Shown here piece by piece: positions 35,424-36,863 of a stretch of DNA of 64,000 bases. The number at the start of each line of letters is the position of its first letter. The first letter of the stretch is position 1. Made by a program: the position numbers and the translations under genes. Source of the DNA: Promethearchaeota archaeon (GTDB lineage: Archaea > Asgardarchaeota > Lokiarchaeia > Sigyniarchaeales > SOKP01); assembly GCA_048937405.1 (NCBI GenBank), contig JBHLNF010000013.1, positions 1-64,000 on the forward strand, given 5' to 3'. The notes beneath the pieces were generated by a model that worked only from the letters and a program-made list of their open reading frames with translations, did no database searches and was not told where the DNA came from.

Positions 35424-36113
35424 TTATAAAATGTTAATTCCAAAAATACTTACACCCCATATCCATAACGCGAATCCTTGAATAAAGCAGAAGATCATTA
35501 TTACAAAAGCAATTGGAGGCCAAGATAAGAATTTGGAAACTTTCTGTAATGTTCCTATAGAAAATTTAGCCATGAGACCTACTATAACGGTCACAATAAT
35601 AAAGATTATTACAAGTATCCATTTTGGGTTTATTACACCAGCAATCACTTGAACAGCTCCATCAGGAACAAGTAAAGCTATGATAAACACTGTTGCAGTA
35701 CCGGCTATAAGCCCTAATATGCTTGAAAGTGGTAAATCTGAGATTGGTTTAAAAAAAATAGCTATTCCAATAACTATTAAGAATATACTTGTGAAATGAT
35801 TTGCAGCATTCTCAGTCACATCTCTATATTGAAAACTAGGAGGTATATTTAAGATGAGACTTACCGCTCCAGACCATATAACAAAGATTCCAAGAATCAA
35901 TCCTATATATGATAATCCTCTTAGAAATTTTGTAATATCAAATTTTTCTTCTTCGGTTTTTCTTTTTAAAAACGATCCTCTACGTTTTCTTTCATACCCC
36001 AACCATGTAATCGCCATTAAACCACTTAAAATCATCATTATTGCCCCTGATTCAGCAACCCAATTAAAAAATCCTTTAATTACATCCCAATAGTCGAAAA
36101 GCAATTTAATCAA
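35424..36113 (-). CDS. hypothetical membrane protein (~6 TM)
   Basis: 229 aa hydrophobic ORF. Confidence 0.75.
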   Translation of the reverse strand: MIKLLFDYWDVIKGFFNWVAESGAIMMILSGLMAITWLGYERKRRGSFLKRKTEEEKFDITKFLRGLSYIGLILGIFVIWSGAVSLILNIPPSFQYRDVTENAANHFTSIFLIVIGIAIFFKPISDLPLSSILGLIAGTATVFIIALLVPDGAVQVIAGVINPKWILVIIFIIVTVIVGLMAKFSIGTLQKVSKFLSWPPIAFVIMIFCFIQGFALWIWGVSIFGINIL

Positions 36114-36255
36114 CTCTAATGAAAATTTTAAATTAAATAACAGTTAGGTTAGGCTTTTAAAAATCTATTGAAAACTAAGTTTAAAATTATAATAATAATC
36201 TATTTATTACCTTACTTGTTTTTTTATCTAAAAAACACTATAAAGTATCTAAACT

Positions 36256-36429
36256 ATGTCTGAATGGAAAAATAAATTAGAAAATGATACTAATGATTCC
36301 TGTAATAGTGAAATATCTTGTACTGGTTGAGCCATTATTGATGGTGTCATAAACGGGATAAGAAGTCTTAAAAAACGATATAAAAAAAGAAAGCAATTAA
36401 AAATTAAATCAAAAGCTCTCAAGGAATAG
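36256..36429 (+). CDS. candidate small selenoprotein/UGA-readthrough protein A (57 aa, CxxU)
   Basis: MSEWKNKLENDTNDSCNSEISCTG-[TGA 36328-36330]-AIIDGVINGIRSLKKRYKKRKQLKIKSKALKE-TAG; frame open for 32 codons after the TGA. Confidence 0.6.
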
Positions 36430-36434
36430 ATTGT

Positions 36435-36479
36435 TAAATTTTAGAATCTAAACCGATAAATTCCGCAAAAATTTCGAGA
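36435..36479 (+). promoter_or_regulatory. conserved 3' two-hairpin element, copy A (candidate recoding element)
   Basis: TAAATT-TTAG-AATCTA aaccgat AAATTC-CGCAA-AAATTT CGAGA; begins 5 nt after the TAG. Confidence 0.55.
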
Positions 36480-36640
36480 ACTTAACATTATGACTTATTA
36501 TTTTTTATTGACAATAAATAAAAGTCTTAAAAGTTTTATAGAAAATTAGATTATATAATTGAATTTTAATTATTTATAATCACTACTCTTTTATTTATAA
36601 TTTAACAGATAAAAATCAGATACTATAAGGATATAAAATC

Positions 36641-36796
36641 ATGAAAGATGAAATTGACTATTTAGATCTTGGATTTGATGATGAGTGTTACAGTACAAGT
36701 TGAGATATGATGAGAATGTGGTATAAAAGAATACAAAAACTACAAAAGATACATAATGAAAAAATAGAAAATGATAAAGAAATCTCAAAGAATTAA
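36641..36796 (+). CDS. candidate small selenoprotein/UGA-readthrough protein B (51 aa, CxxxxU)
   Basis: MKDEIDYLDLGFDDECYSTS-[TGA 36701-36703]-DMMRMWYKRIQKLQKIHNEKIENDKEISKN-TAA; AAGGA upstream. Confidence 0.6.
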
Positions 36797-36801
36797 ATCA
36801 A

Positions 36802-36844
36802 TAAATCTTAGGATTTAATTTTGAGTTCTGCAAGAACTCAGAGA
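36802..36844 (+). promoter_or_regulatory. conserved 3' two-hairpin element, copy B (candidate recoding element)
   Basis: TAAATC-TTAG-GATTTA atttt GAGTTC-TGCAA-GAACTC AGAGA; begins 5 nt after the TAA; compensatory changes relative to copy A. Confidence 0.55.
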
Positions 36845-36863
36845 TAAGAATAATTTTATATTT

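Follow-up and report, generated by a model that had tools for sequence, protein, structure and literature searches.

Two small tandem genes of a Promethearchaeota archaeon are predicted selenoprotein genes with a three-way-junction RNA element at their 3' ends

Comparative data show that translation continues through an in-frame UGA in two small neighbouring genes of a Promethearchaeota archaeon, ORF A and ORF B, and we consider it highly probable that these are tandemly duplicated selenoprotein genes in which the UGA is recoded to selenocysteine (Sec) by way of an RNA element at the 3' end of each. In the mechanism that we propose, each gene would have its own promoter, the UGA would be decoded as Sec by the tRNA-Sec, PSTK, SepSecS, EFsec and SelD of the host, and recoding would be directed by a 65-nt three-way-junction element that begins within the last codons of each ORF and would be a lokiSECIS derivative that lost the AUGA...GA kink-turn core. 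The data support the reading of A and B as two selenoprotein families, not reported before, that are confined to a single Promethearchaeota family; the case is a comparative one only, and there is no direct evidence for transcription, translation or selenium at the locus, no RNA sequencing run being listed as containing it. Both genes lie in the stretch of DNA analysed here (the window, 64,000 nt), which is contig C21 of a 4.47-Mb genome (G000) with 29% G+C. The locus comprises:

36198-36211, + strand: TATA-box-like element of ORF A, an A/T-rich block some 45 nt ahead of the ATG, conserved across 20 species; promoter function inferred
36256-36429, + strand: ORF A, a 57-codon predicted selenoprotein gene, given with its TAG stop; family MSEWK...C-T-G-U-G-I-I-D-G
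36328-36330, + strand: UGA of ORF A (codon 25), predicted Sec in a C-x2-U motif; kept in all of the about 102 significant matches
36415-36480, + strand: 3' element A, a three-way-junction RNA and predicted SECIS variant; overlaps the last four codons and the stop of ORF A
36570-36583, + strand: TATA-box-like element of ORF B, a TTTTTTATAA block kept in 20 species; function inferred
36627-36633, + strand: Shine-Dalgarno-like motif of ORF B, of the GGAGG/GGTGA/AAGGA type, 8-12 nt before the ATG in most species; inferred
36641-36796, + strand: ORF B, a 51-codon predicted selenoprotein gene, given with its TAA stop; family ...DDDCYSTSU-GMLNMWY
36701-36703, + strand: UGA of ORF B (codon 21), predicted Sec in a C-x4-U motif; TGA in 62/66, TGT in 4/66
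36781-36845, + strand: 3' element B, a homologous three-way-junction RNA and predicted SECIS variant; overlaps the last five codons of ORF B in this genome

The original prediction described two ATG-initiated frames with a TGA at codons 25 and 21, open for a further 32 and 30 codons, and its coordinates and motifs hold. ORF A has 24 codons ahead of its TGA and 32 between the TGA and its TAG; ORF B has 20 ahead and 30 before its TAA, and the motifs read CTGU and CYSTSU, respectively. Aligned on the TGA, the two have in common E(-6), T(-2), the DNA context GTACnnGTTGAG, hydrophobic residues at +2, +3, +6 and +7, and I+10, L+13 and K+15, all of them present as first listed. This resemblance lies far beyond chance. 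The layout is also common to both: the N-terminal part is acidic, the tail is rich in Lys and Arg, and the predicted Sec is followed by a narrow hydrophobic stripe. The start codon of ORF A is ATG, TTG or GTG depending on the species.

Conservation of the locus centres on the TGA codons. The whole length of the 660-nt intergenic gap that contains both ORFs aligns in at least 19 species of the genus at 67-81% identity, for a conservation of about 70% over the genus, and within the genus the TGA of ORF A is found in 20 of 20 species and that of ORF B in 19 of 20, the remaining one having TGT. In ORF A the Gly codon that precedes the TGA varies at its synonymous wobble position, with GGT, GGC, GGA and GGG all occurring. 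Of the 133 genomes from a single Promethearchaeota family, 101, spread over 10 genera, contain ORF A, and every significant match (~102 of 102) has exactly one in-frame TGA. ORF B occurs in 64 of 153 genomes of the GTDB order (63 besides the genome of the window), all in the same family as ORF A, and codon 21 is TGA in 62 of its 66 genomic copies and TGT (Cys) in four. Cys has arisen at this codon in four independent lineages, two of them seen as TGT in genomes (G022; G077, G090 and G091) and two in public protein sets (P0023; P0025). No Cys form of ORF A exists among the approximately 102 matches, which are strictly TGA, and among all A and B homologs the site is never TAA or TAG and never a Trp, Arg or Gly codon, so that Cys is the sole alternative. 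That ORF A retains its predicted Sec across more than 100 species, none of them with a Cys version, speaks for a function truly dependent on selenium. In one complete relative genome (G006), two extra TGA-bearing copies of ORF B are found 1 kb apart (C1:190236-190367 and C1:191271-191402), well away from the syntenic A-B pair, an expansion of the B family in that genome.

The codons after the TGA carry the signature of a translated frame. In the 16 codons that follow it, dN/dS (NG86) is 0.30 for ORF A and 0.19 for ORF B, compared with 0.67-0.88 in shifted frames, and before the TGA it is 0.28 and 0.12. Over 16 codons in 20 species the frame after the TGA contains no stop, whereas each of the other frames contains 22-49; every indel in the conserved parts is a multiple of three, and no frameshift occurs after the TGA. 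Recoding had been expected to leave the TGA either conserved or exchanged for a Cys codon, and to leave dN/dS below 1 after it; both expectations are borne out. The statement that UGA is locally recoded, probably as Sec, is supported by the frame conserved after the TGA, the Cys forms, the Sec machinery of the host and the 3' element; the identity of the residue as Sec, and not some other amino acid, is an inference.

Each gene is followed by an RNA element of 65 nt whose A and B copies can be aligned with each other. With two covariance models, R1 and R2, element A scores 68 and 60 bits and element B 54.5 and 76 bits. The predicted fold consists of a closing helix P1 (AUCUC/GAGAU), a main hairpin P2 of 9-10 bp with a 12-nt A-rich loop (14 nt if the last wobble pair is open), and a 6-bp hairpin P3, capped by a CGCAA(A) loop and directly adjoining the 3' strand of P1. 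The junction is reduced to strands of AA and UAU/UU, the flanks are CUCAA(A) on the 5' side and UAU/UAC/UU on the 3' side, and the P2 loop has an invariant AAA and ends in UAG in 40 of 40 sequences. In the genus alignments 95% (A) and 94% (B) of the cells in paired columns can pair, versus at most 60% with the partners slid, and compensatory changes occur in P2 and P3. A covariance-model alignment of 61 sequences is 96% paired with double changes at all 21 pairs; this alignment is guided by the model and thus biased towards it. The sequence of P1 is highly conserved, and the genus alignments contain almost no compensatory changes in it, which leaves its pairing in agreement with the predicted fold but not proven. 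In both ORFs the last four to five codons (window 36408-36429 and 36781-36796) coincide with the 5' strand of P1 and the beginning of P2. The C-terminal residues NLKE of many ORF A proteins thus overlap P1 and P2, and because species in which the ORF ends earlier keep the same nucleotides, it is probably the RNA and not the protein that conserves these residues.

The distribution of the element follows that of the UGA. The covariance models place it after every TGA-bearing unit, at 52 loci in 10 genera. Where only about 20 nt separate A from B, as in g13 and g21, the two genes have a single element in common, located after B, an arrangement also reported for hdrA-vhuD (Mariotti 2016, PMC4989117). 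Among the four lineages with Cys in ORF B, two have lost the element (G077/G090/G091 and P0023) while keeping the one that belongs to the TGA-bearing ORF A, and two retain it. In G022 it scores 32.7 bits, the lowest among B elements scored with R1, and after P0025 it is still present at 52 bits with an altered P3 loop. Coupling is therefore one-sided: judging from these comparisons, a TGA requires the element and a Cys codon can do without it. In its own genome, searches with R1 and R2 return only the two elements of the window and weak matches at C17:176291 and C16:56194 (24-27 bits, E 0.07-0.8). The C17 match follows a coiled-coil ORF without a TGA and is treated as chance or remnant; this site (C17:176291-176353, - strand, L037) has UAGGAUUU and UUCCGCAAGGAA motifs as in the element with poor P2 pairing, and may be a decayed copy or a chance likeness.

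Comparison with the host's own SECIS elements bears on what the 3' element may do. A lokiSECIS is defined by AUGA on the 5' side and GA/AA on the 3' side of a 9-bp stem with an 11-nt loop (Mariotti 2016, PMC4989117), and the VhuD genes of the host have the textbook form, with adenines first and AG last in the loop. Folded with their flanks, the host VhuD SECIS consist of the main hairpin, a helix that closes the structure, and a second, smaller hairpin that has a (U)GCAA-type loop and adjoins the closing helix. The following canonical lokiSECIS were located in the genome:

C28:548892, canonical lokiSECIS
C28:496408, canonical lokiSECIS
C19:205046, canonical lokiSECIS
C13:236030, canonical lokiSECIS
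C19:95112, canonical lokiSECIS
C19:133272, canonical lokiSECIS
C7:839657, canonical lokiSECIS
C7:547321, canonical lokiSECIS
C16:26673, canonical lokiSECIS

These nine canonical elements fold as three-way junctions and not as simple stem-loops, their small 3' hairpin having a (U)GCAA/UGUG-type loop and their closing helix pairing with the sequence just before AUGA.

The new element resembles a lokiSECIS in its P1-P2-P3 topology, its stem, its A-rich loop ending in AG and its small hairpin with a GCAA loop. The apical loops are nearly identical (for example AAAAAUGCUAG in lokiSECIS and GUAAAAUGCUAG in the new element), the rule that the loop begins with adenines and ends with a G after an A is met, and, like lokiSECIS, the element lies just 3' of the stop and can serve two tandem genes. 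Stem and loop measure 9 bp and 11 nt in lokiSECIS versus 9-10 bp and 12 nt here, close without being identical. What the new element does not have is the AUGA / GA (or AA) core around the stem; an ATGA inside the 3' flank of the A type is not conserved, and when tandem G.A pairs were placed at the junction by hand, no register worked. R1 has no significant match in the canonical SECIS regions of the genome, the best being 10 bits to the P2 hairpin of one VhuD SECIS only, and models of canonical SECIS in turn do not detect the new element. The element was not filed as a true lokiSECIS, since the defining core is missing. We conclude that it works like a lokiSECIS and derives from one; that it is the SECIS is an inference. 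When Loki was searched with the lokiSECISearch program, no additional selenoprotein candidates came up (Mariotti et al. 2016, PMC4989117), and earlier searches would have missed A and B because their element is without the AUGA/GA core. SECIS elements of Methanococcales and Methanopyrus are similar in their archaeal 3'UTR location and in that the binding factor is unknown, but they have an asymmetric GAA_A bulge flanked by two stems, one GC-rich and 10 bp long, the other a GC stem of 3 bp; neither the bulge nor such stems are found in the AT-rich three-way junction described here.

The host appears equipped to insert Sec, as the original prediction had supposed for Lokiarchaeota: comparative data place SelD (with one in-frame TGA), a PSTK-like gene (154 bits) and SepSecS (377 bits) in its genome, with EFsec and tRNA-Sec as candidates, and known selenoproteins are present, among them four VhuD/FlpD genes with two in-frame TGA each. 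The EFsec candidate (C7:223955-224791) is a 486-aa ORF 6 kb from SepSecS that scores 232 bits with a bacterial selB model, and the tRNA-Sec candidate (C7:230459-230565), which came from a scan directed at the neighbourhood of SepSecS, lies 240 nt upstream of that gene; its anticodon is UCA, and its T-loop is interrupted by a 22-nt insertion. Both are below curated cut-offs, the tRNA-Sec candidate scoring 23.9 bits against an Rfam gathering score of 47, and neither ARAGORN nor the Rfam tRNA models found a tRNA-Sec at cut-off in the genome. The low score and the insertion fit the T-loop intron described for the tRNA-Sec of Loki (Mariotti et al. 2016, PMC4989117). Furthermore, only 14 tRNA genes (ARAGORN) or about 20 (Rfam tRNA model) are found in the genome, most of them 100-140 nt long, i.e. 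intron-bearing, and because most tRNAs here carry introns, the lack of a tRNA-Sec at cut-off is not evidence of absence. Detection of tRNAs with standard tools is unreliable in this lineage. The three Sec genes form a cluster at C7:223955-231960 (loci L127, L129 and L005). SepSecS is found in 144 of 153 genomes of the order, and its presence therefore has no power to separate genomes with A and B from those without. TGA ends 266 of 1822 open frames of at least 300 codons genome-wide and nine of 39 long frames in the window, in agreement with the assertion that it is an ordinary stop elsewhere.

Three other explanations of these data deserve consideration. If the UGA simply terminated translation, the locus would encode short upstream peptides followed by a conserved segment that is non-coding or separately translated, and the likeness to selenoproteins would be coincidental. 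Gene callers using code 11 do stop at the TGA, and in-frame ATG codons follow soon after the TGA of ORF B, where database entry P0028 begins. ORF A, however, has no conserved start codon downstream of its TGA, a single frame is under purifying selection before and after the codon and contains no stop, conserved parts change only by multiples of three, and the Cys-codon forms of ORF B are uninterrupted ORFs of unchanged length; we regard termination as very improbable. It is also conceivable that the UGA is read through by a standard aminoacyl-tRNA, either a near-cognate one for Trp or Cys or in a programmed manner, giving full-length proteins without selenium. The comparative data speak only to continued translation and not to the inserted residue, and the 3' element lacks the canonical SECIS core, both of which leave room for this idea. 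Against it, Cys alone ever replaces the UGA although Trp, Arg and Gly codons are one step from TGA, and more than 100 species retain the TGA where a sense codon would cost less. As in redox selenoproteins, moreover, a conserved Cys stands two to four residues ahead of the UGA, the host uses Sec and has no fewer than five other UGA-containing selenoprotein genes, and the stem, loop and second hairpin of the element copy those of host SECIS elements. Read-through without selenium thus seems quite unlikely to us.

A different objection grants the insertion of Sec and concerns the role of the element, which could act as a terminator, as a small RNA or as a signal for processing or stability, with the recoding signal elsewhere, for example in GTACnnGTTGAG. 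The absence of the AUGA/GA core and of any significant covariance match to canonical SECIS is compatible with such a role, as are the conserved nucleotide context of the UGA and the two Cys-containing B genes that retain the element. Conservation of that context, on the other hand, is explained by conservation of the amino acids T-G-U-G and T-S-U-G, and no TGA-bearing unit among the 52 loci is without the element. Loss of the element after Cys forms in two independent lineages, the use of one element for both genes where A and B adjoin, and an apical loop and position after the stop so close to those of lokiSECIS (PMC4989117) likewise point to a part in recoding. We consider a role other than SECIS unlikely, if not to be dismissed, and retain recoding to Sec through the 3' element as the explanation for the locus.

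The two families appear to be related. A profile-profile comparison (hhalign) aligns Sec with Sec at a probability of 63% (E 7e-5), and the paralogy first proposed for A and B is plausible on this basis; protein-level support is moderate, and it is strengthened by the mutually alignable 3' elements. Together these data support an origin of A and B by tandem duplication of a unit of gene plus element. Of the two families, that of ORF A is older and more widespread. At 18 loci (g14, g16, g17, g18, g23 and parts of g21 and g22) ORF A and its element occur without any B within 1 kb, and these loci rule out an obligate A-B complex as a general rule.

The products would be proteins of 45-57 residues, largely alpha-helical, in which an amphipathic helix opens with Cys-x2-Sec (A) or Cys-x4-Sec (B); the part before this motif would be acidic and the tail strongly basic. 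AlphaFold2, run on the family alignments, predicts a single helix for each (residues 3-56 with mean pLDDT 77.5 for A; residues 14-50 with mean pLDDT 79.5 for B), and the confident part of both models starts right at the Cys/Sec motif. From the position of C-x2-U and C-x4-U at a helix N-terminus we infer that A and B are probably small redox-active (selenylsulfide-forming) or metal-binding helical selenoproteins, and probably dimers, an assignment that rests only on the motif and on predicted helices (pLDDT 78-80). More speculatively, the element could be a functional SECIS without a kink-turn and A and B a class of single-helix selenoproteins that pair as parallel coiled coils with Cys and Sec in register. 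Such pairing, A with A or, where B exists, A with B, would yield an inter-helix diselenide or selenylsulfide, or a Cys2Sec2 metal site; we think this combined proposal possible but rather doubtful at present.

No known selenoprotein family accounts for A and B. The Rdx family (SelW, SelT, SelH, SelV) is comparable in having Cys-x-x-Sec in a small protein, where a selenylsulfide is expected. Rdx proteins, however, have a thioredoxin-like fold and about 85-190 residues, while A and B are predicted to be single long helices without a Pfam match, in which no thioredoxin-like alpha/beta fold was met, and ORF B has C-x4-U in place of CxxU. Bacterial selenoprotein genes differ also in their signal, which is an in-frame bSECIS immediately after the UGA and not a 3'UTR element. 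Small bacterial selenoproteins in NCBIfam (CC/Se motif, dual-CXXC; PMC13188914) are, like A and B, short with only the Cys/Sec motif recognisable, but have no sequence match to them. The known Lokiarchaeal selenoproteins (VhuD, HdrA, VhuU, Prx-like and SPS; PMC4989117, PMC11227280) are alike in lineage, Sec machinery and the placement of the UGA near a Cys, yet A and B have no homolog among the known families and are far smaller (45-57 aa).

Neither family is on record in Pfam, NCBIfam or the literature. Pfam gives no match to ORF A or ORF B, with nothing near cut-off, and NCBIfam gives none to either, the best E-value being 0.08 and far below cut-off. Across the whole window no Rfam family reaches its gathering score, and ARAGORN finds nothing. 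HMM searches of 1.8-5.8 billion public proteins found only a handful of relatives, all on short metagenome contigs and none with a name or a Pfam domain. Most of these show Trp at the TGA position as a result of gene calling with code 4 in AT-rich DNA (W at the predicted Sec in P0002-P0021, P0022, P0024, P0026 and P0027), and two ORF B relatives carry Cys. The suspicion that gene callers miss this family is therefore well founded: they either miss A and B or, on short contigs, write the TGA as Trp. Thus, counts of the Lokiarchaeia selenoproteome are underestimates.

These predictions fit into a broader discussion of how archaea specify Sec. To our knowledge, the archaeal selenoproteins described so far were all found by homology to known families. 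A and B would be the first lineage-specific Asgard selenoprotein families found without such homology, next to seven homology-found families (2024 survey PMC11227280; 2026 review PMC13188914), and would rank among the smallest selenoproteins known. The kink-turn core that the new element lacks is central to the argument for a "eukaryote-like SECIS". If a SECIS free of the kink-turn proves real, the determinant in Lokiarchaeia would be an A-rich loop on a 9-10 bp stem in a three-way junction and not AUGA/GA, and the reading of the transition from archaeal to eukaryotic SECIS would change. Since the element retains the stem, loop and overall junction of lokiSECIS without that core, it is a natural experiment on which SECIS features are read by the archaeal SECIS-binding factor, which is still unknown, and SECIS searches that require AUGA will miss the core-less class.

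The genes flanking the locus, all on the opposite strand, encode a 229-aa membrane protein, a 100-aa coiled-coil protein and a UDP-glucose/GDP-mannose dehydrogenase. A function for A and B was not deduced from these neighbours, the synteny being merely inherited. The 229-aa multi-pass membrane protein (35424-36113, - strand), divergent from ORF A and without a Pfam match, is found at this position only in the genus of the window and not in genus g22.
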